Shown here piece by piece: positions 9,646-23,375 of a stretch of DNA of 64,000 nucleotides (position 1 is its first letter; every line of letters begins with the position of its first letter). The stretch covers positions 11,769 to 75,768 of the forward strand of contig JAAXWR010000001.1 of NCBI GenBank assembly GCA_013334825.1, read 5' to 3'. This DNA comes from Candidatus Yonathbacteria bacterium. GTDB lineage: Bacteria > Patescibacteriota > Minisyncoccia > Phycocordibacterales > JACNGX01. The notes beneath the pieces were generated by a model that saw only the letters and a list, made by a program, of their open reading frames with translations, was not told where the DNA came from and did not search any database. The position numbers and the translations under genes were made by a program.

Positions 9646-10038
9646 ATGAAAAATCTTATAAAAAAAGAAATTCTCTATCCAGAGCTTAGTTATATTATTA
9701 TGGGCTGTTTATTTAATGTTCATAATGAGATTGGGTCAGGACACAAAGAGAGAATCTACGAGAGGGCGGTTGCTGAAGCTTTTATAGAGAGAGGGCTCTC
9801 TTTTAAGGAACAAGTATACGTCCCTGTTATTTTTCATGATAAGTATGTGGGTAAATATTTTCTCGATTTTCTGGTCGATGGGAAAATTGTTGTTGAATTA
9901 AAAGCGGGCGATCAATTTCTGAAGAAAGATACAGATCAGATATTGAGATATTTGCAGATACATAATATTTCATTAGGTATTCTTGCGCGTTTTACATCTC
10001 GTGGAGTAATTGCAAAAAGGATAATACACATAAAATAA
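9646..10038 (+). CDS. GxxExxY family protein (PD-(D/E)XK nuclease-like)
   Basis: 130 aa. 'SYIIMGCLFNVHNEIGSGHKERIYERAVAEAF...VELKA' fits the GxxExxY architecture, with a variant G-x-x-E motif (GHKERIY). Confidence 0.65.
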   Translation: MKNLIKKEILYPELSYIIMGCLFNVHNEIGSGHKERIYERAVAEAFIERGLSFKEQVYVPVIFHDKYVGKYFLDFLVDGKIVVELKAGDQFLKKDTDQILRYLQIHNISLGILARFTSRGVIAKRIIHIK

Positions 10039-11018: not shown

Positions 11019-11858
11019 GTGGAAAAGATATATAATAATGTAATGGAGGAGACTCTGTGTATTGAAGGAAAAACATATATGGCGTCTTCCTCCGCAGCGA
11101 AAATGGTGGGGTATGCTTCTGATTATGTGGGACAACTCTGTCGCGGAGGTAAAGTTGAGGCAATACGTGTTGGACGTGTGTGGTTTGTTAATATTGCATC
11201 TCTTACCGCATATAGCACATCAACTGACATGCGCACGTCGCGTCAGTCTCCTTTATCATCAGAACACATTTCTTCCACAAAAATGTTTTCTGAGAAGAGT
11301 TTTTTGAGTGATGCCGTAAAATCAGGATTTTCGACATGTATTGAAAGCGTCTTTGCAATCCTTGTGTGTTGTGCATTGTTTGTTGTGGGGATGCGTACTT
11401 TCTCGGGAAATAGTGTTATGACACTCCCAACAATACCACCTAATGTATTTGCTTTTTCCGAGCACGTCATTTCAGAGGATGTGTCCGCAATAGTAAGTCT
11501 TTCAGGAGGACAAATGCATTTGGGGTTTGGTCAGAGCATTGCCGTTATGATATATCGAGGCATAGAATTGTTAGCTTCTGGTGTGCGCATTGTACTCGGG
11601 AAGGCGTTGTATGCTTCTTTAAATATTCTTGGTTTTGGAGTTCCAGAAGGTGTCATTTCAGATCATGTGATGGTTGTTGTACCAGCTGCAGTGAGTGAGG
11701 CAGATAATGAAGAGATGAAAGAAAAAATAAAACAATCATTCTCTGACCCTGTGGATGTGGCAGTTGAAGATGATGGAACAGGTATTATTACGCCAGTCTT
11801 TAAGAGCGGTAAGGAAGACAATTATATGTTTGTTATGGTTCCAGTGGGAGGGGAATGA
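11019..11858 (+). CDS. hypothetical membrane-tethered protein with N-terminal HTH-like segment
   Basis: N-terminal 'AAKMVGYASDYVGQLCRGGKVEAIRVGRVWFV' resembles an excisionase/MerR-type HTH. One TM helix (FAILVCCALFVVGM), then an extracytoplasmic domain. First gene of the surface locus. Confidence 0.4.
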   Translation: MEKIYNNVMEETLCIEGKTYMASSSAAKMVGYASDYVGQLCRGGKVEAIRVGRVWFVNIASLTAYSTSTDMRTSRQSPLSSEHISSTKMFSEKSFLSDAVKSGFSTCIESVFAILVCCALFVVGMRTFSGNSVMTLPTIPPNVFAFSEHVISEDVSAIVSLSGGQMHLGFGQSIAVMIYRGIELLASGVRIVLGKALYASLNILGFGVPEGVISDHVMVVVPAAVSEADNEEMKEKIKQSFSDPVDVAVEDDGTGIITPVFKSGKEDNYMFVMVPVGGE

Positions 11859-11860
11859 TT

Positions 11861-11898
11861 CCTCATCGATATGTCTGTGAACAGATATATCGATGAGG
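11861..11898 (+). terminator. hairpin CCTCATCGATAT-loop-ATATATCGATGAGG
   Basis: 12-bp inverted repeat immediately after the stop at 11858. Confidence 0.45.
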
Positions 11899-12055
11899 GT
11901 TCGTTCTACAGAGAAAAATGCAAGGTCGATGCACCAATCTATGAATACCCCCAAAAAATAACGTGAATATTCCGCACCACGAGGGAATGTTCATGTCGCA
12001 TAAGAACACTGTCATTTGTGTGACAGTTATTAATCAAAATATTATTTTTATCGTT

Positions 12056-12697
12056 ATGTATATATTTAAATTATTTTTTTCATCAGCGACGATAATGGCG
12101 CTCATGTTGACGCTAGTGTATCCTGCGCTTGAACCAGTGATTGTACGTGCCCAAGTTACAGATACGGTTGTTGTAACGCAGACAGTTGATGCTGGGATCG
12201 CTATTTCGTCACCAAGTGATATCACGATGACGCATCTCTCTACCACGCAAAATAGTGCTGTGGGGAGTGCTACGTGGACAGTTACGACGAACAATCAAGC
12301 TGGATATACACTTGATGTACACGCATCAACTGATCCAGCACTTCAAAGTGGATCAGAGCAATTTACTGATTATACAGAGACATCCGCAGGTGTTCCTGAA
12401 GTCTGGAATGTGGTTAGTGCATATGAATTCGGGTTCTCCGCGTATGGGACACATGTGCCTGCTGCGTGGGACACTAATACTGCTACAGATTGTATTGAGG
12501 GGGCGAATGTTCCAGGTGTAGACCTTCGATGGTTGGGATTTAATGGGACGACCGATATTGAGGTGGCGTCATCTTCTTCTGAAACAGGAACTTCAGGAAT
12601 TGCATCTACTATATGTGTGGCAACAGAACAAGATGGAGTCTTCGCACCCTCCGGTGTTTACACTGCCACTATCACAGCGACTGCGACAACTCAATAA
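12056..12697 (+). CDS. secreted surface protein, paralog A (WxL-like C-terminus)
   Basis: Signal-peptide-like N-terminus (the true start is one of the in-frame ATGs at 12056 or 12095). C-terminal 'WLGFNGTTDIEV...GVFAPSGVYTATITATATTQ' is paralogous to 13746..14483 and resembles the WxL motif 'P.G.YTG.LTWTL'. Confidence 0.55.
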   Translation: MYIFKLFFSSATIMALMLTLVYPALEPVIVRAQVTDTVVVTQTVDAGIAISSPSDITMTHLSTTQNSAVGSATWTVTTNNQAGYTLDVHASTDPALQSGSEQFTDYTETSAGVPEVWNVVSAYEFGFSAYGTHVPAAWDTNTATDCIEGANVPGVDLRWLGFNGTTDIEVASSSSETGTSGIASTICVATEQDGVFAPSGVYTATITATATTQ

Positions 12698-13669
12698 ATG
12701 TTTACTGATATGAAAACTCATACAGTTTTAAAAAAGAATATGTATTTTTTTGGATTGTTCATCGTAAGTATGTTGTTGTTTCCTGGATTTGTGAGTGCGT
12801 ACACAATTACTCATATAGGTGCTTCAATACGAGGGGACTTTGTCCTTGAGCCAGCAAAGATTGAACTCTTCACTAATCCTGGGCATGAGTCAGTTACTGA
12901 ACTTCAGGTAACGAATCGAACTGATGATACGCTTACTTTCTCTGTATCAATCGAAGACATGTCTGGTTCTGATGATCCGATGCGCCCAGTGCTTTTGCTC
13001 GGTGATAAACAGGGGCCGTACTCTCTTCGTGATTACATTAAGCCAGAGATTGATACCTTTACGCTCAAATCAGGCGAACGGATAACATTACCGGTGACTA
13101 TCTCGATTCCCTTGGATGCCGAGCCAGGGGGATTATATGGCAGTGTGTTGTTCGAAAGTCGAAGTATTGGTCAAAGTGAAGAGGCGTCTCGAACAATATC
13201 GCGTCTCGGAGCACTCCTTTTTGTTCGTGTAAATGGAGATGTTGCAGAGAGCGGTGCACTTGAAGATTTTCGTGTATCGGGTGGATCCCCTGTCTCTTTT
13301 ACACAAGAGCCAATCGGATTTGAAATGTTGTATCGAAACAGCGGATCAGTGCACGTTAACCCGTACGGTATGATTACGGTACGAAATTTGTTCGGACTTA
13401 CTGTTGGAGAAATTGAAGTGACTCCATATTACGCGATGCCAGAATCACTTCGATATCGAAAAGTCATGTGGGAACATGGACCTCTTTTCGGATACTATAC
13501 GGCGACGCTTGAACAAAATCGTGGATACGATGATATCGTTGATACTCGTACACTTTCATTTGGTGTGTTGCCATGGAGAGAATCTCTTATCGCATTTATT
13601 CTTATCCTATTTGTTATCTTTGGAGGACGATGGATAATTACAACATTTGAATTTAAGCGTAAGAAATAA
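12698..13669 (+). CDS. DUF916/DUF3324-like cell-surface protein with C-terminal membrane anchor
   Basis: Signal peptide. 'FVLEPAKIELFTNPGHESVTELQVTNRTDDTLTFSVSIEDM' resembles the DUF916 N-terminus. C-terminal TM helix plus basic tail 'FILILFVIFGGRWIITTFEFKRKK', as in CscA proteins. Confidence 0.5.
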   Translation: MFTDMKTHTVLKKNMYFFGLFIVSMLLFPGFVSAYTITHIGASIRGDFVLEPAKIELFTNPGHESVTELQVTNRTDDTLTFSVSIEDMSGSDDPMRPVLLLGDKQGPYSLRDYIKPEIDTFTLKSGERITLPVTISIPLDAEPGGLYGSVLFESRSIGQSEEASRTISRLGALLFVRVNGDVAESGALEDFRVSGGSPVSFTQEPIGFEMLYRNSGSVHVNPYGMITVRNLFGLTVGEIEVTPYYAMPESLRYRKVMWEHGPLFGYYTATLEQNRGYDDIVDTRTLSFGVLPWRESLIAFILILFVIFGGRWIITTFEFKRKK

Positions 13670-13745
13670 TTGTATTCAAGATTTGGTACACACATTCTTC
13701 ATGACCACATGTATGCACACAGAAATAAAAAGATGTTCCGGACAT

Positions 13746-14483
13746 ATGCATGTACGCATAGCTCTCATCTGCTGTCTTTTGTGTGCTCCTGTTGCGTTTG
13801 CTGCGGTAATGGAAAGTGACTCGTATCGTATGAGTGCGGATAGTGTGAATATCGGAGGGGCGTTTGGTGAGAGTGATTCATATCACATAGAGGATACAGT
13901 CGGTGAGATTGCGACGGGAGATTCGGGAAGTACATCATATCGTCTTCATGCGGGGTATCAACAGATGCATGGATCAATGATATCAGTAACACCTGGATCT
14001 GATGTAAATCTCAGTGCACTTTCTATGGCACAGAACTCGGCTGTTGCGTCAACTTCTTGGGTCGTAACAACTGACAATACTGCAGGATATATATTTTCAG
14101 TTCGAGCTTCTTCCGTTCCAGCACTCATTGATGGAGGAACAAATGAATCATTTACTGATTATACCGATGGGGGAGTTCCCGAGAGTTGGAATGTTACCGG
14201 AGCTTACGAATTTGGTTTTTCGGGATATGGAGGAAATGTTGAAACAGCAACATGGGGAATGGACATAGGGCCTGATTGTATCGAGACTCCCAATGTTCCG
14301 TCCGCAGGACTCAATTGGCTTGGTTTTGAAGGCACAAATGATATTCTTCTTGCATCTTCAGAATATAGAACTGATGAAGCGGGAGAGTCCACTGTTATGT
14401 GTGTTGCCACACAACAGAATGGGGTCTTTGCGCCGTCGGGTACGTATACGGCAACAGTGACAGCTACCGCTGTCGCGCAATGA
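13746..14483 (+). CDS. secreted surface protein, paralog B (WxL-like C-terminus)
   Basis: Signal peptide 'MHVRIALICCLLCAPVAFAAV'. Its C-terminal half is clearly paralogous to 12056..12697 (YEFGFSGYG, NWLGFEGTNDI, GVFAPSGTYTATVTATAVAQ). Confidence 0.6.
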   Translation: MHVRIALICCLLCAPVAFAAVMESDSYRMSADSVNIGGAFGESDSYHIEDTVGEIATGDSGSTSYRLHAGYQQMHGSMISVTPGSDVNLSALSMAQNSAVASTSWVVTTDNTAGYIFSVRASSVPALIDGGTNESFTDYTDGGVPESWNVTGAYEFGFSGYGGNVETATWGMDIGPDCIETPNVPSAGLNWLGFEGTNDILLASSEYRTDEAGESTVMCVATQQNGVFAPSGTYTATVTATAVAQ

Positions 14484-14530
14484 TGACATGTTGTTCTTTG
14501 AGAACTATGGATACCACTTCAAGACAACAC

Positions 14531-15883
14531 ATGAAAAAAAAAGCCATTCATGTGGCCATAAGTTTTTTCTTCGTGTTGAATTACATGGGAATGACCCCAT
14601 TGCATCTTTTTGCCGCAACGGATAGTGACATTCTTCTTATTCGTCAACAGGTGGGGGATAGTATTGTGCCTCCACCACCATCTTCACTGGGAGGGGGTGG
14701 AGGGACATTTCTTGCCCCAGAACTTTCTATCACCAATGTACGTACTGATGCACACACGACGGATGTTGTCGTTTCGTGGACGACAAGCATCTTTTCGACG
14801 GCCGTACTCACATGGGGGACAGAGGGTGTGTATGGCAAAGGACAATCGGCCGAAGTTGTCCCTTCAATGGAACATACGATGTCGATTGATGGGTTGTCAC
14901 CAGGTACTCAATACGCATTGTCTTTGCGAGTGACAGATATATACGGGAGAGTGGTTACTGTTGAAGGAGTGTTATTGAGAACAGAACGTCTTCCTGACAG
15001 TATTCCTCCAGCGAACGTATCTGATTTCACAGCGATATATCAAGATGAAGGGGTCATGCTCTCATGGGATAATCCTCCTGACACTGATTTCAAGCGTGTA
15101 CGCATTGTGCGGTCAGACATGTTTTTCCCTGAGGATCCATATGATGGACTTGTTGTGTATGAGGGGCGTAAGGAATTTGCACGCGATACATGGGTTGACT
15201 TAGGAACGACGTATTATTATACGGCATTTGCAGAAGACAACACAGGGAATTATGCATCGGGCGCACTTGCTCGTATCCGTATTCCACGTTCTCTCGACGA
15301 AGTGTTTGTTCCTGAGACAGATGAGGGTGATATGTTTGGTGGCATTGAGATACTTCCCGAATACGGTGAAGTTCCGGAAGAAATAAAAACACTTTCATTT
15401 CAAGACTTTCGTTTTGTGCAGTTTGGAAAAGACGTAGAAAGAAATGGGAATACACTTGTCATTGATGCGTCAGGAAATCTTCAAATTCTTCTCGGGTATG
15501 ACTCTGTTCCAGAAGTGTTAAAGACAATCGGGGTGACTCTTGTTGATCCAAATGACCCATCGAAAGTATTTCCATTTTTGTTGCGCCGTGACACAGAAGG
15601 TGATGCATACAGCGCGACACTCGCTCCGCTCACGCGTCCAGGCGTATATCGTATTTCTGCGACAGTGCTTGATTATAAACATCAAGTACTCAAACGATTC
15701 GAAGGAAAACTTATTGTTCCTGGGACAATCGAAACAGAGAGCTTTCCCGCGTTTATAGGTGTTTGTGATTATTGTACAAAAGAGCTGAATGGTTGGCGAT
15801 TTCTTTTCTGTTATGGTTGGATAGCTCTCATACTCATATTGATACTCCTTATGCGTCGGAAAAAAAAGAAGAAAAATTATTGA
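14531..15883 (+). CDS. surface protein with fibronectin type III domains and C-terminal TM anchor
   Basis: Signal peptide. FN3/PAP-N-like 'TDVVVSWTTSIFSTAVLTWGTEG...YALSLRVTD', then a second FN3. C-terminal TM helix plus poly-K tail. Confidence 0.6.
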   Translation: MKKKAIHVAISFFFVLNYMGMTPLHLFAATDSDILLIRQQVGDSIVPPPPSSLGGGGGTFLAPELSITNVRTDAHTTDVVVSWTTSIFSTAVLTWGTEGVYGKGQSAEVVPSMEHTMSIDGLSPGTQYALSLRVTDIYGRVVTVEGVLLRTERLPDSIPPANVSDFTAIYQDEGVMLSWDNPPDTDFKRVRIVRSDMFFPEDPYDGLVVYEGRKEFARDTWVDLGTTYYYTAFAEDNTGNYASGALARIRIPRSLDEVFVPETDEGDMFGGIEILPEYGEVPEEIKTLSFQDFRFVQFGKDVERNGNTLVIDASGNLQILLGYDSVPEVLKTIGVTLVDPNDPSKVFPFLLRRDTEGDAYSATLAPLTRPGVYRISATVLDYKHQVLKRFEGKLIVPGTIETESFPAFIGVCDYCTKELNGWRFLFCYGWIALILILILLMRRKKKKKNY

Positions 15884-15901
15884 TGTAGTTTTTACAAGAA
15901 C

Positions 15902-18900
15902 ATGTATATACCACGCACACGATATATAGTAATGTTTGTAACATTTCTCATAGGAGTGAGTGCTTTTGTTGTGGTGCGTGCGGCATTTAATCCAGAGATA
16001 AATTATCAAGGGAAACTTACGAATACGAGTAACGTCGCGGTGAATAATGGAGACTATAATATACGTTTTCGTCTGTATACCGTTCCGTCGGGCGGTTCTC
16101 CACTATGGACGGAGACGCTCTGTTATTCTCCTGATGCGGGAACTACGTGTGACGGAACAGGTGTCGACAATCGTCCTGAGATTTCGAGTGGTTTATTTTC
16201 TGTACTGCTAGGTGCTGTGTCATCGCTCGCGTCTGTTAATTTTGATCAGACACTCTATTTGGGTGTTGAGATTGGAGGATCCAGCTCAACGCCGACCTGG
16301 GACGGCGAAATGACCCCGCGTAAAAAACTCGGTGCGGTCCCTGCTGCATTTGAAGCAGGGAGACTTGATGGAATTGACTCAGCATCGTTCTTGCGTTCAG
16401 ATGAGCCAGATACAATGGCAGTAACGTCTGCATCGACAGCTCTTACTATCACTCAGTCAGGAACAGGAGATATCCTAAATATCAACGACGGCGCAAGTGA
16501 AGTGTTCACCATCCTTGATGGTGGCAATGTCGGCATTGGCACCATTACCCCTGGTCAAAAACTCACCGTTGACGGCACCCTCGGTATTTTGGAAGGAGGC
16601 ACGACCCCGACGTACCACACGATATTCCAAGGGGGAGATCAGGCAGGTGATGTTACGTATACACTACCGACCGCACAAGCAGGAGGGAGCGGCTATGTGC
16701 TTTCTAATAATGGATCAGGAATTTTGTCGTGGGTTGCTGGAGGGGGTGGAGGAGGTATGGCAATCGGCGGAGCAGTGACTTCAGGGACTTTAGGTTCCAT
16801 ACTTTTTGTTGATGCATCGGGAAATCTTGCACAAGACAATACGAATTTCTTTTGGAATAACACTGATAAAAGATTGGGTATCGGGACGAATACGCCAAAC
16901 GAAGCACTGGATGTAAATGGTACGATTCAAGCAAAAAAAATCCTATTTTATGACGATACCATTACAGGCAAAACTCACAGCAACATCTCTTTTTCGGAAA
17001 CGGAAGTATCCCCAACAGTTACAGATCTTTTGCTTGATTCTGATACAGGAACTGACTTTCGGTTTATAATGGATCATGTATATGAGATAGATTTTGGCAC
17101 ACCTCCTGGAGGTATGAGCGGTTTTTCAAATGCTATAACACTTGGGACGACCGGGACTTCGAGTTTGCGCTTTAATAGCGGTCCGCAGATATACGGTGGT
17201 GTCGGGGATGCGTTGTACCTGGATAGCTATCACGGCACTCTTGTTTCTAATAACAGTGGTGATATCGTTCGTTTTGGGACCAGTAGTGCTAATACAGACA
17301 CGTATTTTTATGGAAATGTCGGTATCGGCACCGCCGTCCCCGATCGTCGTCTCGACGTCCTCGATGCCACAAACCCTCAGCTCCGTCTCACCTACACCGA
17401 CGGCTCGGTGTACACTGATTTTCAGACAACTTCTGCTGGTGATTTATATATAAATCCATCGGGTGGTAGTGTTGGTATCGGGACTGCACTCCCGACTTAT
17501 CCACTGGAAGTTAGTGGAGGAAATCTTGGAGCACAAATGAAGATAACACATTCTGGCGTTGGTTATGCCCCCGCAAGTATTTTATTGGAAGAAGAAACTG
17601 ATTTTGGAAGAGGACAAGGCATTTACCAGCATAGTGTTCCCGATGGCGACTCTTGGTTTTCTGGTGTTCCCTATGGAGCTGATGGAGATTTGTGGGGTGT
17701 CTTCTATAAAAATGATGTGGTGTGGGATCCTAGTGTAGCCTCTACCGCATATTCTGTTCTTAGAGTTGAGAAAAGCGGAAACATAGGACTTAATACTTCT
17801 GCTTATTTAAATTGGGGTGAGATTGGAACGAGCGGATATGGTCTTCGAGATAATGGAGGAGTAATGCAATATAAAAATTCTAGTGGTTCATGGACAAATC
17901 TTTCTGCCGGCGGTGGAGGCATGGCAATTGGAAGTGCTGTAACGTCAGGGACTTCTGGCTCTGTACTTTTTGTTGATGCATCGGGAAATCTTGCACAAGA
18001 CAATACGAATTTCTTTTGGAATAACACTGATAAGAGATTGGGTATCGGGACGAATACTCCTGCATATGATTTGGATGTGGCAGGAAGCGGATATTTTAGA
18101 TCAAAGAGCGGATTAAGTACTGTTACAGAAAGTTTTGAAGGGGTGACGTTTCCCCCAACTAGTTGGACAACAGGAGGTGATGCGAACTGGACAAGAACAA
18201 CAGCGGAAGCACAAGAGAGTGCGGCATCCGCAAATTCAGGGACAATAACAAACAGTCAAATTGCATGGATTGATCGTGATTATACATTTACCACAACAGG
18301 GGAGGTAAAATTCTACTGGAAAGTAAGTTCAGAGACAGCATATGATTACCTCTTGTTTTGTGCTGACAACGATTTATCATGTACAGATAGTTCGTATACG
18401 CAGCGTATTTCAGGCGAGGTTGACTGGGTTGAAGTGACATATGTTGTATCAACACCTGGTGTACATAGTTTTCGTTGGGTTTATTCAAAAGATTCTGGAG
18501 ATCCAGGAGTTTTTCCTTGGTCAGATGAAGGATGGATTGATAATGTGCGTTTTATAGAATCAACAGGAATATCTGGTGGTAATGTGTTTGCTGAAGGGTA
18601 TCTTTCCACAGGAGATAGTGGAGTGTTTATAGGATCTTCCACAAATGATCGAGGGAGTATTTTATATGATACAACGAATAATATTCTTGCATTTGATACG
18701 GATTCGGTTACAAATGCTGACGTTTCGTTCTTTTCCGATAATTTATATATTGATAAATCAACAGAATATATCGGCATTGGTGATGTGACACCCGATTCCG
18801 TTCTCGATATCCTCTCTGCCACCGCTTCCAACACCCAACTCTCCATCGGAAACACTAATGCCGGAGACTATGACCCACAAATCGGGTTCCAGCTCGCCGA

Positions 18901-21778
18901 CGGAACGACCAATATCTTCACGATGGGTATTGACGATTCCGACTCCGACAAGTTCAAGATTTCCGGTGGCTCTGCTCTCGGCACGAACGACCGCCTTGTG
19001 ATTGATTCGTCGGGGAATGTCGGACTTGGCACCGCTGGTCCCGATCGTCGTCTCGATGTCCTCGATGCCACGAACCCTCAGCTCCGTCTCACCCATACCG
19101 ACGGCTCGATGTACACTGATTTTCAGACAACATCAGAAGGAGATATTACTGTCACCCCATCGGGCGGGGATTTAACATTTATAGGAAATATTCTCCCAGG
19201 TGGTACATCGGGTGCATATAATCTTGGTTCTGATACTGCACGATGGGGCGATTTTTATCTTGACGGTGAGACAATTCATATTGGTTCATCATTAACGGAT
19301 GAAGGAATTATCTCATATACGTCTGGAAATATTCTCTCTTTTGACACTGACACAACGACAGGTGGTGACATTGCCTTTTTTACTGATGATATTTATCTTG
19401 ATAAATCAACAGGATATGTAGGTTTGAGTGATACTACACCCGATCACACTCTTGATGTCGCAGGCAATATTGGACTTAACACTTCTTCATACATCAACTT
19501 TGGTGACACTGATGGCACCGATGGTTATGGTTTTCGTGATAATGGGGGAACACTTCAGTTCAAGCACAACGGTGGATCATGGACAAATTTTGGAGCATCA
19601 TCGTCCTCGGTGACCCCAAGGGATTTTTGGTCATTCAATCATTTTTATTATAACGGTGTTAGTTCAATGGATCCGTTTTTCGGAGCGGCGATTTCCTCGG
19701 GAACGATAGGTGCTCCGACTGCCGCATCAATGGCGAGTGGTAACCATCCGGGAGCGATTCTTGTCAGCAAAGCAGCAAGTACGACAGCGAACTCGGGATA
19801 TCGTATTACTGGACTCAGTACAGCGATGGTTTTGGGAGGAGGATATCTTTTTGAGGGGGTGATAAACGTGCGCACTCCCGCAGCAGGGACAAACACTATT
19901 TATCTTGGTTTTCATGACGCGACGAGTGTGACTGCTCCGGTGGACGGTGTGTATTTTGATATTGCGGGAACGACGGTAACAGGGCGTTCACGAGGAGGAT
20001 CTGCAACTCTTGCAACAGCGAGCACATACACAGTTTCTACTGGAAACACTGATTGGTATCGCTTTAGAATTGTCATTAATACAGCGGCAACGCGTGCGGA
20101 CTTTTATATTTATGATGACGCTGGCACGCAGGTGTGGACAGATTATGTCAGCGGAAACGCGGGCGATCTTCCAACGGCGACAGCAGACTTGCTCACCGCT
20201 GGATTTCTCGGGGTGAACTCTTCAACCACGGCAACTGCCTATGAAATTGCAAATGTCGATTATATGGGAATGGGAACAGTCGCGGGATATGATGCGTTTA
20301 CAACAGGCGGTTCTGGTCTTTGGACGGTGAATGGATCGAATGTGTATTATAATGCTGGTAATGTCGGTATTGGAACAACAGCACCTTCACAGGCACTTTC
20401 TGTTTCGGGGACATTGGGTATTATTGAAACAGGAACAACACCACAGTATTACAGTATCTTTCAAGGAGGTGACCAAGCTGGCAATATTACCTATACGTTA
20501 CCGACAGCTGTTGGTGGTGCAGGACAACAACTTACCGATGCAGCAGGTAATGGCGTGCTTTCATGGGCGGCAGCTGGTTCAACTCGCAATTTAAAAGATA
20601 TTGATGGATTAATCGAAGATCCGCAAGAAGCTCTTGAGACAATTTTGGAAACAAATATTTATGCCTTTCATTATAAGGAAGGTATGGGAACAGGAGACGC
20701 GCAAACACAATATGTTGGTGTTATGGCGGATGAAGCATCATGGGCAATGCACTATGATGGAAATGTAGTAAACCCTGTGAATACATTGGGGTATATGGTC
20801 CTTGGTATGCAAGCGACAAACAAACGCATTGATGACATTATTGCTGGGTTGGCATCAGTATCGGATAGTGGAGGGAATTCTCTTTCGGATACAGGAATGG
20901 CAGTATTGTATGCGCCAATTACCGCCATGCTCTCAAATGATCCAATGAATGGTATGCGAATTGCCTCAATACTCTCTTCGTTTATTGAAGGAGGGGATGT
21001 CGGTACGTCATTTTGGAATGTAGATGCTGTTACTGGTGTTATTTCACCTCTCGGATCTCTTGATATGGATGGGAATGGTGTGTATGATGTTGCGGAAATT
21101 ATTGGTATCGATGAATCATGGAGTGTTAATCGACAAGGACTTCTTACGGTGAATGGTCTCGTCGTACGGGGAGATATTGAGGTGGGAAGTCGTGAAAAAC
21201 CTTCGGGCATTACACTCTATGATGAAGTGACAGGAGAGCCGTATTGTCTCCGTATGGTTGCGGGAGTGATAGAGTCCACGCTAGGGACATGTGAAAGTTT
21301 ACGGGCGTCTTCATCTGATGGTGGTGATATGGGGGACATCACACCTCCCACCATTGTACTTCGAGGCAATAACCCCGCACGTATTGAAATTGGTGATGAA
21401 TACGGTGATCTTGGCGCAACAGTAACAGATGACAATGATGAATATCCAACACTGGAGATATATATTGAGGGTGAAAAAGTTGATACTGTTCATATTATGG
21501 CAAGAGAAGATGCGACGTATACTATTGAGTATGTTGCCTATGATGATGTAGGAAATACCTCAACCGTAACACGTACCGTGATTGTGGGGAATGGGAGTCC
21601 AGATGCTCAAGAAGAAAGCGAAGTTGAGGATGTTCCTTTAGTCGAAATACCTCCGGTAGCAGAGCCAGACCCCGAACCGTCAGTAGAAGAAGTGATTATT
21701 GATACAGAACCAATACCAGAACCAGTCAGTGGGTCTGGAAATGTTCTCTCAGATGAGCCACAAACTCTTCATGAATAA
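15902..21778 (+). CDS. giant (1958 aa) tail-fibre-like cell-surface protein with internal intramolecular-chaperone (peptidase S74-like) domain
   Basis: N-terminal signal/TM. Repeated 'GNVGIGT..P...LDV' fibre motifs. Two jelly-roll/lectin-like inserts. 'STRNLKDIDGLIEDPQEALETILETNIYAFHYKE...YVGVMADEA' matches the phage endosialidase chaperone domain. A further about 380 aa follow it, including a DUF5011-like Ig segment 'PPTIVLRGNNPARIEIGDEYGDLGATVTDDND' and an acidic P/E-rich tail. Confidence 0.7.
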   Translation: MYIPRTRYIVMFVTFLIGVSAFVVVRAAFNPEINYQGKLTNTSNVAVNNGDYNIRFRLYTVPSGGSPLWTETLCYSPDAGTTCDGTGVDNRPEISSGLFSVLLGAVSSLASVNFDQTLYLGVEIGGSSSTPTWDGEMTPRKKLGAVPAAFEAGRLDGIDSASFLRSDEPDTMAVTSASTALTITQSGTGDILNINDGASEVFTILDGGNVGIGTITPGQKLTVDGTLGILEGGTTPTYHTIFQGGDQAGDVTYTLPTAQAGGSGYVLSNNGSGILSWVAGGGGGGMAIGGAVTSGTLGSILFVDASGNLAQDNTNFFWNNTDKRLGIGTNTPNEALDVNGTIQAKKILFYDDTITGKTHSNISFSETEVSPTVTDLLLDSDTGTDFRFIMDHVYEIDFGTPPGGMSGFSNAITLGTTGTSSLRFNSGPQIYGGVGDALYLDSYHGTLVSNNSGDIVRFGTSSANTDTYFYGNVGIGTAVPDRRLDVLDATNPQLRLTYTDGSVYTDFQTTSAGDLYINPSGGSVGIGTALPTYPLEVSGGNLGAQMKITHSGVGYAPASILLEEETDFGRGQGIYQHSVPDGDSWFSGVPYGADGDLWGVFYKNDVVWDPSVASTAYSVLRVEKSGNIGLNTSAYLNWGEIGTSGYGLRDNGGVMQYKNSSGSWTNLSAGGGGMAIGSAVTSGTSGSVLFVDASGNLAQDNTNFFWNNTDKRLGIGTNTPAYDLDVAGSGYFRSKSGLSTVTESFEGVTFPPTSWTTGGDANWTRTTAEAQESAASANSGTITNSQIAWIDRDYTFTTTGEVKFYWKVSSETAYDYLLFCADNDLSCTDSSYTQRISGEVDWVEVTYVVSTPGVHSFRWVYSKDSGDPGVFPWSDEGWIDNVRFIESTGISGGNVFAEGYLSTGDSGVFIGSSTNDRGSILYDTTNNILAFDTDSVTNADVSFFSDNLYIDKSTEYIGIGDVTPDSVLDILSATASNTQLSIGNTNAGDYDPQIGFQLADGTTNIFTMGIDDSDSDKFKISGGSALGTNDRLVIDSSGNVGLGTAGPDRRLDVLDATNPQLRLTHTDGSMYTDFQTTSEGDITVTPSGGDLTFIGNILPGGTSGAYNLGSDTARWGDFYLDGETIHIGSSLTDEGIISYTSGNILSFDTDTTTGGDIAFFTDDIYLDKSTGYVGLSDTTPDHTLDVAGNIGLNTSSYINFGDTDGTDGYGFRDNGGTLQFKHNGGSWTNFGASSSSVTPRDFWSFNHFYYNGVSSMDPFFGAAISSGTIGAPTAASMASGNHPGAILVSKAASTTANSGYRITGLSTAMVLGGGYLFEGVINVRTPAAGTNTIYLGFHDATSVTAPVDGVYFDIAGTTVTGRSRGGSATLATASTYTVSTGNTDWYRFRIVINTAATRADFYIYDDAGTQVWTDYVSGNAGDLPTATADLLTAGFLGVNSSTTATAYEIANVDYMGMGTVAGYDAFTTGGSGLWTVNGSNVYYNAGNVGIGTTAPSQALSVSGTLGIIETGTTPQYYSIFQGGDQAGNITYTLPTAVGGAGQQLTDAAGNGVLSWAAAGSTRNLKDIDGLIEDPQEALETILETNIYAFHYKEGMGTGDAQTQYVGVMADEASWAMHYDGNVVNPVNTLGYMVLGMQATNKRIDDIIAGLASVSDSGGNSLSDTGMAVLYAPITAMLSNDPMNGMRIASILSSFIEGGDVGTSFWNVDAVTGVISPLGSLDMDGNGVYDVAEIIGIDESWSVNRQGLLTVNGLVVRGDIEVGSREKPSGITLYDEVTGEPYCLRMVAGVIESTLGTCESLRASSSDGGDMGDITPPTIVLRGNNPARIEIGDEYGDLGATVTDDNDEYPTLEIYIEGEKVDTVHIMAREDATYTIEYVAYDDVGNTSTVTRTVIVGNGSPDAQEESEVEDVPLVEIPPVAEPDPEPSVEEVIIDTEPIPEPVSGSGNVLSDEPQTLHE
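16801..16893 (+). repeat. intragenic repeat R1a, near-identical to 17964..18056
   Basis: About 93 nt, identical except one base: 'actttttgttgatgcatcgggaaatcttgcacaagacaatacgaatttcttttggaataacactgataa'. Confidence 0.9.
17327..17432 (+). repeat. intragenic GC-rich repeat R2a, about 93% identical to 19028..19133
   Basis: 'ggcaccgccgtccccgatcgtcgtctcgacgtcctcgatgccacaaaccctcagctccgtctcacc...' is seen twice. Confidence 0.85.
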
Positions 21779-22985: not shown

Positions 22986-23375
22986 ATGATAGGAAATCAG
23001 GAGATAAGTAAGAAAGATAAAGAAAAGGTGTGCTCATATCGCTCTTTGATTGTATGGCAAAAAGGTTTCGAGGTATCTTTAGTTGTGTATCGCCTGACGA
23101 AGACATTTCCTGATGACGAGCGATATGGTCTCGTATCGCAAATGAGAAGAAGTGCAGTTTCTATTCCGTCGAATATTGCAGAAGGATACGCGCGAGGATC
23201 AAAAGCATCATTTCACCAATTTCTGAGAATCGCATACGGTTCAGCTGCTGAGCTTGAGACGCAATTATTATTAGCAAAAGAATTGAAATACCATAAAGAA
23301 ACAGACATTGAAGAATTGTTGATTGAGGTTATGAAGATGATTAACGCAATTCTTTCAAAAGGAAAATATACATGA
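22986..23375 (+). CDS. four-helix-bundle protein (TIGR02436 / 23S rRNA IVS-protein family, Avd-like)
   Basis: 'SLIVWQKGFEVSLVVYRLTKTFPDDERYGLVSQMRRSAVSIPSNIAEGYARGSKASFHQFLRIAYGSAAELETQLLLAKEL' is diagnostic. Inserted between ssb and rpsR. Confidence 0.85.
   Translation: MIGNQEISKKDKEKVCSYRSLIVWQKGFEVSLVVYRLTKTFPDDERYGLVSQMRRSAVSIPSNIAEGYARGSKASFHQFLRIAYGSAAELETQLLLAKELKYHKETDIEELLIEVMKMINAILSKGKYT

Follow-up and report, generated by a model that had tools for sequence, protein, structure and literature searches.

Gene content of the locus

The window analysed here, a stretch of 64,000 nucleotides from contig JAAXWR010000001.1 of a Candidatus Yonathbacteria bacterium, contains a putative surface-fibre cassette of six open reading frames (ORFs), which lie on the + strand in the order A-B-C-D-E-F and span 11019-21778 of the window in the ORF list (Table 1). 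An earlier reading of the window, made from the letters without database searches and called the sequence-only reading below, had interpreted the first five genes as a Csc/WxL-like cell-surface complex in a genome of the Candidate Phyla Radiation (CPR). All five are present on the + strand where that reading had placed them, and the genome is indeed of the CPR: protein C has a 100% identical counterpart in a metagenome-assembled genome of Candidatus Yonathbacteria, of the Patescibacteria/Parcubacteria group. The spacing is tight, with intergenic gaps of 0 bp (B-C), 76 bp (C-D), 47 bp (D-E) and 18 bp (E-F). The last of these gaps, together with the synteny of F in relatives, moves the end of the locus beyond 15883, where it had been set before, while its start at 11019 stands. 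A domain scan found no usher domain in A to F, and the LPx[TSA]G motif is absent from the same six proteins.

Table 1. Position and assignment of the features of the cassette (window coordinates)
Feature	Position	Strand	Size	Assignment
Gene A	11019..11858	+	279 aa	Membrane-tethered helix-turn-helix (HTH) protein, putative regulator; variable upstream member
Hairpin	11860..11899	+		Perfect 18-bp stem between the A stop codon and B
Gene B	12056..12697	+	213 aa	Putative major pilin
Gene C	12698..13669	+	323 aa	Membrane-anchored chaperone-like protein, WxLIP family
Gene D	13746..14483	+	245 aa	PamT-like minor or tip subunit (putative)
Gene E	14531..15883	+	450 aa	PamR-like tether (putative), fibronectin type III (FN3) plus transmembrane (TM) segment
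Gene F	15902..21778	+	1958 aa	Giant secreted tail-fibre-like protein, likely adhesin or fibre

Conservation of the cassette

Relatives of C were scanned with one genome per species, which gave 124 species; locus counts here and below refer to the best 80 loci, from Falkow-, Campbell-, Taylor-, Zambryskii-, Nealson-, Jackson- and Kaiserbacteria and 'Paceibacterota'. A B-type gene precedes C in 71 of the 80 loci, a D-type gene follows C in 73 and E follows D in 70, and all four genes are found on one strand in 61. The grouping of these genes is therefore not due to chance, since the order B-C-D-E recurs in 61 of 80 species-level genomes. A homologue of F lies 3' of E in most of the loci whose contig extends far enough to show it. 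Three metagenome contigs keep the order of the cassette beside different core genes (rpoBC, gatB/obg). The homologues of C (more than 919), B (185) and E (57) all belong to the Patescibacteria lineage wherever the source names an organism. About half of the records of C homologues, including the closest relative (61% identity), are titled 'uncultured Candidatus Saccharibacteria bacterium', and one is titled 'uncultured archaeon'; the Saccharibacteria titles look generic and provide no evidence for an occurrence in Saccharimonadia.

The giant protein F contains SO2946-like_C (3e-22) and Bact_surface_Ig-like (3e-10) domains and a weak Peptidase_S74 match, and it matches tail-fibre families of PHROG. 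Neither a B/D-type nor a WxL domain was found in F by HMM (hidden Markov model) scan, and no other B/D-type gene was found among the window ORFs. In one relative (L009), four small genes with Pfam T4SS_pilin matches (13257-14986) occupy the position of F.

Protein C, a WxLIP homologue with a chaperone-like fold

Protein C consists of an N-terminal signal segment, two immunoglobulin (Ig)-like domains (one DUF916-like, one DUF3324-like), a C-terminal TM helix and a basic tail, FEFKRKK. The Pfam model WxLIP_PGBD (PF06030, formerly DUF916) matched it with an E-value of 3.7e-5 and 24.2 bits, just below the cut-off of 27.3; the same model matched 30 of the 36 aligned members of the C family (best 5.5e-7), and the Pfam model of DUF3324 gave no match to C at E <= 1. 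The Firmicute reference set consisted of seven WxL clusters (L001-L007), which are plasmid records of Enterococcus, Listeria and Lactococcus. When the C family was aligned with the seven Firmicute WxLIPs by hhalign, the probability was 98.1% (E = 9.6e-14) over 210 columns that cover both Ig-like domains, with unrelated control pairs staying below 3%. In the reverse direction, an HMM of the Firmicute WxLIPs recovered C at 2.5e-6 among the 602 ORFs of the window. Compared with PDB sequences, the C family profile matched EfmWxLIP1 (9i25, 9i1y; E = 1.7e-6).

The AlphaFold2 model of C (mean predicted local distance difference test, pLDDT, of 89) comprises two beta domains and a C-terminal helix at residues 293-316. 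Its best Foldseek match in PDB was 9i25_C, the WxLIP of Enterococcus faecium locus A bound to long WxL (E = 1.6e-13), and the next matches were chaperones of chaperone-usher systems, namely CfaA, CsuC, Caf1M, FimC, SafB and DraB (E = 1e-10 to 1e-7). The target-normalised template-modelling scores (TM-scores) were about 0.5 for these chaperones and lower, about 0.35, for RbmA. C is thus a genuine, distant homologue of Firmicute WxLIP/CscA (DUF916 + DUF3324 + TM). For this gene the sequence-only reading, which had recognized a signal-peptide protein of 323 aa with a DUF916-like N-terminus, a TM anchor and a basic tail, was correct both in the profile-profile comparison with DUF916/DUF3324 proteins and in the structural comparison with enterococcal proteins.

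Proteins B and D compared with the WxL domain

B and D are paralogous (49% identity in alignment A2), and each has an N-terminal hydrophobic signal segment and one invariant pair of cysteines. Their C-terminal ends, ...GVFAPSGVYTATITATATTQ in B and ...GVFAPSGTYTATVTATAVAQ in D, share a motif, so that two paralogous secreted proteins of about 200 aa with a common C-terminal motif are present as had been described. Their further interpretation as degenerate WxL proteins was not supported by these comparisons. The Pfam model of WxL (PF13731) matched 0 of 41 B/D family members at E <= 0.1, and an HMM built from 11 Firmicute WxL proteins matched none of the 602 window ORFs. Hhalign comparison of B/D with WxL was negative with full alignments, and with trimmed domains, under four settings and with a 229-sequence profile (effective number of sequences, Neff, 4.8), it gave a probability of 0.3% (E = 0.2), which does not exceed that of the controls. 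Searches of PDB sequences with B, with D and with their joint profile yielded nothing usable, and the 50 best PDB matches that Foldseek gave for the B model include no WxL chain.

At the positions of the WxL motifs, B and D have Y-x-L and A-T-A in place of W-x-L, and the likeness extends no further than the motifs of two beta-strands, T-[DN]-x-x-G-[WY]-x-L-x-V and G-x-Y-x-T-[IL]-T-[WA]-T. A forced (maximum accuracy, MAC) alignment of B/D with WxL is collinear, pairing TTNNxAGYxLxV with VTDxRGxxGWxLxV and GxYTATITATA with YxTTLTWxL. Because this alignment is collinear while the hhalign result equals that of the controls, the likeness of the motifs is real, yet without statistical weight. Of the similarity once seen between 'YTAT(V/I)TATA' and the WxL motif, the resemblance of the strands thus remains and the statistical support fails.

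Protein B as a putative pilin subunit

B starts with a signal peptide and a donor-type strand (TDTVVVTQTV), which are followed by a single beta-sandwich acceptor domain with the conserved pair Cys146-Cys187 and the end GVFAPSGVYTATITATATTQ. Its AlphaFold2 model (pLDDT 92) is a single beta domain, and residues ~26-47 lie outside the fold with lower confidence. The best PDB match of the model in Foldseek was the pilin domain of PapG (2wmp_B, E = 2e-3), and the other top matches, CS17, CfaE, FimF, PapE, TasA, CfaB and CS20, are nearly all donor-strand fibre subunits as well. B is always located upstream of C.

The signal peptides of the B type show a near-invariant Glu-Pro 5-8 residues ahead of the predicted A-x-A site, as in ...YPALEPVIVRA before the site and Q after it (window 12056-12160, alignment A2). 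A Glu-Pro is unusual in the c-region of a Sec signal peptide.

Protein D and a portable PamT-like module

In D, the signal peptide is followed by an N-terminal module, made up of three SxxYx-hydrophobic repeats with the end AGYQQM, and by a B-like acceptor domain. Residues 4-122 of D, its N-terminal half only, matched positions 9-128 of the NCBIfam model NF058579, CPR_pilus_PamT (E = 1.6e-12, 47.3 bits). In the Pam operon of Candidatus Mycosynbacter amalyticus (Saccharimonadia, CPR), PamT is the single-domain tip pilin, of 25.6 kDa, and the Ig-like pilins PamA, PamB and PamE are linked to one another through donor-strand exchange (Troman et al., bioRxiv 10.64898/2026.03.03.709456). The length of D is close to that of PamT. 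Ten relatives gave 28-49 bits or no match to the same model, whose equivalog cut-off is 240 bits; from these scores and from the half-length match, the relationship of D to PamT is regarded as homology, not orthology.

The D-type module was found in 530 representative clusters. In 77 of the 80 loci it lies, ending in AGYQQ, in the gene downstream of C, and never in the upstream gene, so B is always without it. The module is also combined with other domains: it stands at the N-terminus of some E homologues (P0419, P0435), where it replaces the simple strand, heads the 2220-aa E+F-like protein P0359, and follows lectin-like DUF2341/Laminin_G_3 domains in P0283 and P0357, an arrangement reminiscent of a tip adhesin with two domains. 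In the 2187-aa protein P0381, which resembles a large WxL protein, the module and the acceptor domain together form the C-terminal end. Judging from these architectures, D may be a tip, an adaptor or a donor.

Fusions of C with D are represented by five 50%-identity clusters (P0246, P0247, P0259, P0305 and P0272, ~450-580 aa). Their order is WxLIP-like ectodomain, TM helix, short basic loop, D signal peptide as second TM, module and acceptor domain, and the TM hairpin thus formed is topologically sound. Such fusions would link C and D functionally. D-module proteins of ~530 aa were first taken as PamA-like two-domain pilins, an assignment that was rejected when inspection showed them to be C-D fusions.

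Protein E and the paired N-terminal strands

The ORF of E opens at 14399, and the ATG at 14531 (MKKK...) is its plausible start. The product has a signal peptide, a strand (SDILLIRQQV), a Pro/Gly linker (PPPPSSLGGGGG), tandem FN3 domains and one more beta domain, and it closes with a TM segment and the tail RRKKKKKNY. The fn3 matches in Pfam and the match of the family profile to tandem FN3 structures (E = 1e-12), together with the TM segment and the tail, agree with the C-terminally anchored FN3 protein that had been predicted here. The Pam operon likewise encodes an FnIII tether, PamR, which has an additional strand at its N-terminus and ends in a TM helix (Troman et al.). The E family also reached an hhalign probability of 86% against the Firmicute WxLIPs, over the last ~90 columns. 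This was not taken as homology, because those columns cover the TM segment and basic tail and because E scored only 9.5% against the C family; the value probably reflects composition.

The N-terminal strand of B lies past the predicted signal-peptidase site and outside the fold, and the strand of E carries the same motif. Genome by genome, the B and E strands change together, as in the pairs EDQFIVSQTI / EDQFIVSQLI, SSVVVTLNV / GSVNVNLNV and SDLITVTQAV / SDSIVVTQMV. At the Q/L position (B, E), the 43 genomes compared comprise 18 QQ, 4 QL, 0 LQ and 21 LL (at least 3 of the 4 QL cases being mis-picked segments), and at the F position, eight have F in both proteins, two in B only, none in E only and 33 in neither; the Fisher p-values of 1.4e-8 and 3e-7, respectively, are too strong, because the genomes fall in clades and are not independent. 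Of seven strand residues, 3.7 were identical in same-genome pairs, compared with 2.38 +/- 0.15 in permuted pairs. Strands with the same residues in B and E are as expected if both fit one groove; a role of this kind has been proposed for PamR and its N-terminal strand. A further comparison, of acceptor-groove columns that covary with the donor Q/L or V/F positions, was uninformative, as many columns in all four proteins follow the clade split.

In the Firmicute clusters L001-L007, the small WxL and the small LPXTG (CscD) proteins both show, past the signal peptide, a short segment that resembles a strand and leads into an acidic or Pro-rich linker. The strand pairs YTSNGAITFE and YDSNGVTSFF (L005), and SKGIVKFD and SKAGVIFT (L002), parallel those of B and E. 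The same-cluster similarity of the Firmicute WxL and LPXTG N-termini was not significant (n = 6; 19% of permutations as good).

Gene A, the hairpin and the flanking genes

A had been described as a membrane-tethered HTH protein. A single central TM-like segment (residues 102-120) is present, followed by a C-terminal part of ~140 aa, and the N-terminal HTH gave a weak match to HTH_17 in Pfam (E = 0.26), so that the membrane segment is borne out and the HTH part remains a weak match. A homologue of A occurs upstream of B in about 30 of the 80 related loci, and also in L010 (BLASTP 1e-24).

The hairpin, detected in a scan for terminator-like structures, starts directly past the stop codon of A, ~150 bp ahead of B. 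Its RNA fold has a dG (folding free energy) of -37.7 kcal/mol (z = -7.9), with 0 of 200 shuffles equally stable, and it is trailed by a weak U tract only. Such a hairpin might terminate or attenuate transcription, stabilise a transcript, or serve as an operator for the HTH protein A.

The neighbours of the locus are housekeeping genes: aminoacyl-tRNA synthetases, TatD, S6, SSB, Mur ligase and RecA. Two small flanking genes, at 9646-10038 and 22986-23375 (PD-(D/E)XK family PDDEXK_3; '23S rRNA-intervening sequence protein'), seem unrelated to the cassette.

A proposed usher-less fibre and its alternatives

The reading that we favour, with moderate confidence, is that the cassette encodes a monoderm fibre built by donor-strand exchange without an usher, a distant variant of the CPR Pam pilus with a single-domain pilin. 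In this scheme all products would be exported by Sec. C, held in the membrane by its C-terminal helix, would act like the chaperones PapD/FimC or like a WxL-bound WxLIP, and by lending a beta-strand would complete the sandwich of B and D after their export. The PamT-like D might start or cap the distal end, and B would polymerise, with each N-terminal strand (T-D-x-V-x-V-x-Q/L-x-V) filling the groove of the previous subunit. E could end the chain by inserting its B-like N-terminal strand into the last B, and would tie the fibre to the membrane through the Pro/Gly linker, the FN3 stalk and the TM helix. F would be a co-expressed adhesin or fibre, and A may regulate the operon. The scheme is based on the homology of C to WxLIP, the likeness of its fold to chaperones, synteny and the equivalence of the B and E strands, and it is from these that we infer strand insertion, polymerisation, subunit order and the filament. 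It is supported by the operon order of major subunit, chaperone, minor subunit, anchor and fibre (61 of 80 genomes), in which the major subunit comes first and the chaperone second, as in chaperone-usher operons. Further support is seen in the tight spacing of the genes, the likeness of the B model to donor-strand fibre subunits, the invariant cysteines of B and D, the PamT match of D, the PamR-like architecture of E, the C-D fusions and the tail-fibre-like neighbour.

Several points weigh against this scheme. The Foldseek matches of B to pilins, with probabilities up to 1.0, are weak in E-value (2e-3 at best) and in TM-score (about 0.5). D is far below the equivalog cut-off of NF058579 and is the sole NCBIfam match in the locus, as B, C and E matched no model at E <= 1; the likeness to the Pam system of M. 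amalyticus was judged from the published descriptions and from the NCBIfam PamT model. A two-domain pilin of the PamA/PamB type is missing, B having 213 aa and one domain, and a scan of 10 flanking ORFs turned up no ATP synthase domain. Since the D-type module occupies the N-terminus of P0419 and P0435, the assignment of D to the tip is uncertain and D may also donate a strand. The covariation of B and E is weakened not only by the clades mentioned above but also by the Q/L split being shared by many columns of all four proteins.

The strongest alternative is a static complex of the Csc/WxL type. In it, C would stay attached at the membrane to B and/or D through an inserted strand, the complex would present or organise F, and E would be a separate surface protein with FN3 domains. 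Among solved structures, a WxLIP bound to long WxL is closest to C, and the homology extends over both domains; one WxLIP with two small paralogues is also the commonest make-up of WxL clusters (PMC10599100), C-D fusions would suit a permanent pair, and B/D and WxL run collinearly in the MAC alignment, with both motif strands paired. We nevertheless consider such a complex rather unlikely, because no WxL domain was detected in B and D by Pfam, by HMM, by hhalign or among the 50 best matches of Foldseek, because the locus has no LPXTG protein and no large window protein ends in a B/D domain, and because the common, covarying N-terminal strand of B and E, outside the folded domain, would be left unexplained. 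It is also conceivable that the genes encode co-regulated secreted or envelope proteins that exchange no strands, such as a surface-layer or wall scaffold or a host-attachment patch, with C, E and F being separate Ig/FN3 proteins anchored in the membrane or at the surface. All of the domains are generic beta-sandwich surface modules, the structural matches of C include RbmA and other Ig tandems, and those of B to pilins are weak. This seems improbable to us, however, given that WxLIP and then the chaperone-usher chaperones (TM-score about 0.5) rank above RbmA (about 0.35) among the matches of C, that the gene order is strict with a positional split of B-type and D-type genes in 77 loci, that D matches PamT, and that the common strand of B and E argues against their independence.

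A prophage or phage-derived tail-fibre module might be suspected from the PHROG tail-fibre and weak Peptidase_S74 matches of F and from a weak match of E to the fn3 part of the phage tail fibre J family. With A to D matching no PHROG family, with housekeeping genes around the locus, with different core genes adjoining the cassette in other species, and with its presence in 124 species-level genomes, such an origin is very improbable.

Implications

The Parcubacteria/Paceibacteria are among the most abundant and least understood CPR lineages, and their host attachment is largely unknown. The cassette is a candidate attachment fibre in at least 124 species-level genomes, and with a single-domain pilin, an N-terminal donor strand and one chaperone, it should be easier to test in vitro.

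The homology of C to the WxLIPs of enterococci, listeriae and lactobacilli and the likeness of its fold to chaperones of chaperone-usher systems, which together suggest that the systems are related, join systems that have so far been treated apart; a link of WxLIP clusters, the Pam pilus and chaperone-usher systems was not found in the literature searched. Tentatively, and with considerable doubt, we propose that the Firmicute Csc/WxL clusters, the Pam pilus of Saccharimonadia and the cassette of Parcubacteria represent three branches of one ancient monoderm system of surface fibres or adhesins, in which a WxLIP-family chaperone does the work of both the periplasmic chaperone and the usher. 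The WxL domain may then be a diverged acceptor (pilin-type) domain, and CscD (LPXTG) and E/PamR (TM) may be equivalent base anchors that plug in by the N-terminal strand. If this were true, WxL clusters would assemble by donor-strand exchange and not only by peptidoglycan binding, and strand exchange is suggested as a testable mechanism for WxL virulence and adhesion clusters.

Comparison with known systems

TasA of Bacillus forms a fibre without an usher by strand complementation. It (PDB 8aur) is among the top structural matches of B, and differs from the cassette in having no dedicated two-domain, TM-anchored chaperone, no FN3 tether and no sequence relationship. The chaperone-usher pili (Pap, Fim, CFA/I, Csu, Caf1) resemble the cassette in the match of the C model to their chaperones, the weak match of the B model to their pilins, the N-terminal donor strand (putative in B) and the order of major subunit, then chaperone. 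The cassette differs from them in having no usher and no outer membrane, in the TM-tethered chaperone and in the absence of detectable sequence similarity. CPR cells are not known to have an outer membrane.

The Csc/WxL clusters of Lactobacillales, Enterococcus and Listeria (Siezen 2006, PMC1534035; Hassan and Williamson, PMC9772566, PMC10599100; PDB 9i25, 9i1y) share with the cassette one WxLIP gene, to whose product (WxLIP/CscA) C is homologous, flanked by two genes for small secreted paralogues, as well as an anchor at the surface and a surface protein of very large size. For both it is predicted or seen that the incomplete sandwich of a partner is completed by a strand of the WxLIP-type protein. 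Different are B and D, without a detectable WxL domain or Trp-x-Leu motifs, the anchoring by a TM helix in place of the LPXTG sortase signal, the giant F, which has no C-terminal copy of the small-protein domain, and the FN3 tether and PamT-like module, which are features of the cassette. E may be a functional stand-in for CscD with a TM anchor. Thus, of the parts of a Csc/WxL cluster, the WxLIP, the small secreted beta-proteins, the anchor and the giant protein are found, and the WxL domains, the LPXTG protein and the large protein ending in WxL are not.

The Pam pilus, reported by Troman et al. without mention of WxL, DUF916 or Csc, has pilins found mainly in Saccharimonadia and Microgenomatia. 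Its PamA and PamB are two-domain proteins, with an N-terminal domain, a donated linker strand and a truncated Ig C-terminal domain, and define the solved filament; PamC and PamD, which resemble the chaperones PapD/FimC, each end in a TM helix, and tail-fibre-like and ATP synthase genes are conserved in the pam neighbourhoods (Troman et al.). Compared with this, the cassette has one chaperone gene instead of two, a putative donor strand that is N-terminal in B, as in chaperone-usher pilins, instead of an inter-domain linker, no two-domain pilin, and a sequence similarity far under the NCBIfam family cut-off, and it belongs to Parcubacteria and shows no ATP synthase among the 10 flanking ORFs scanned. 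On the other hand, both are CPR operons without an usher that encode small secreted Ig-like subunits with paired cysteines. By description, C fits PamC/PamD in its chaperone-like fold and C-terminal TM helix; E fits PamR in architecture, with an N-terminal strand, tandem FN3 domains and a TM helix; D fits PamT through the NCBIfam match, and F fits the tail-fibre-like neighbour. The defining WxL domains are not detectable, and the PamT score and the missing two-domain pilins speak against a match to Pam at the level of orthologues, while the architecture and the inferred mechanism match; the locus is therefore filed, with moderate confidence, as a Pam-type variant. The CPR Pam pilus, which the sequence-only reading had not considered, is a closer described system than the Csc/WxL cluster.

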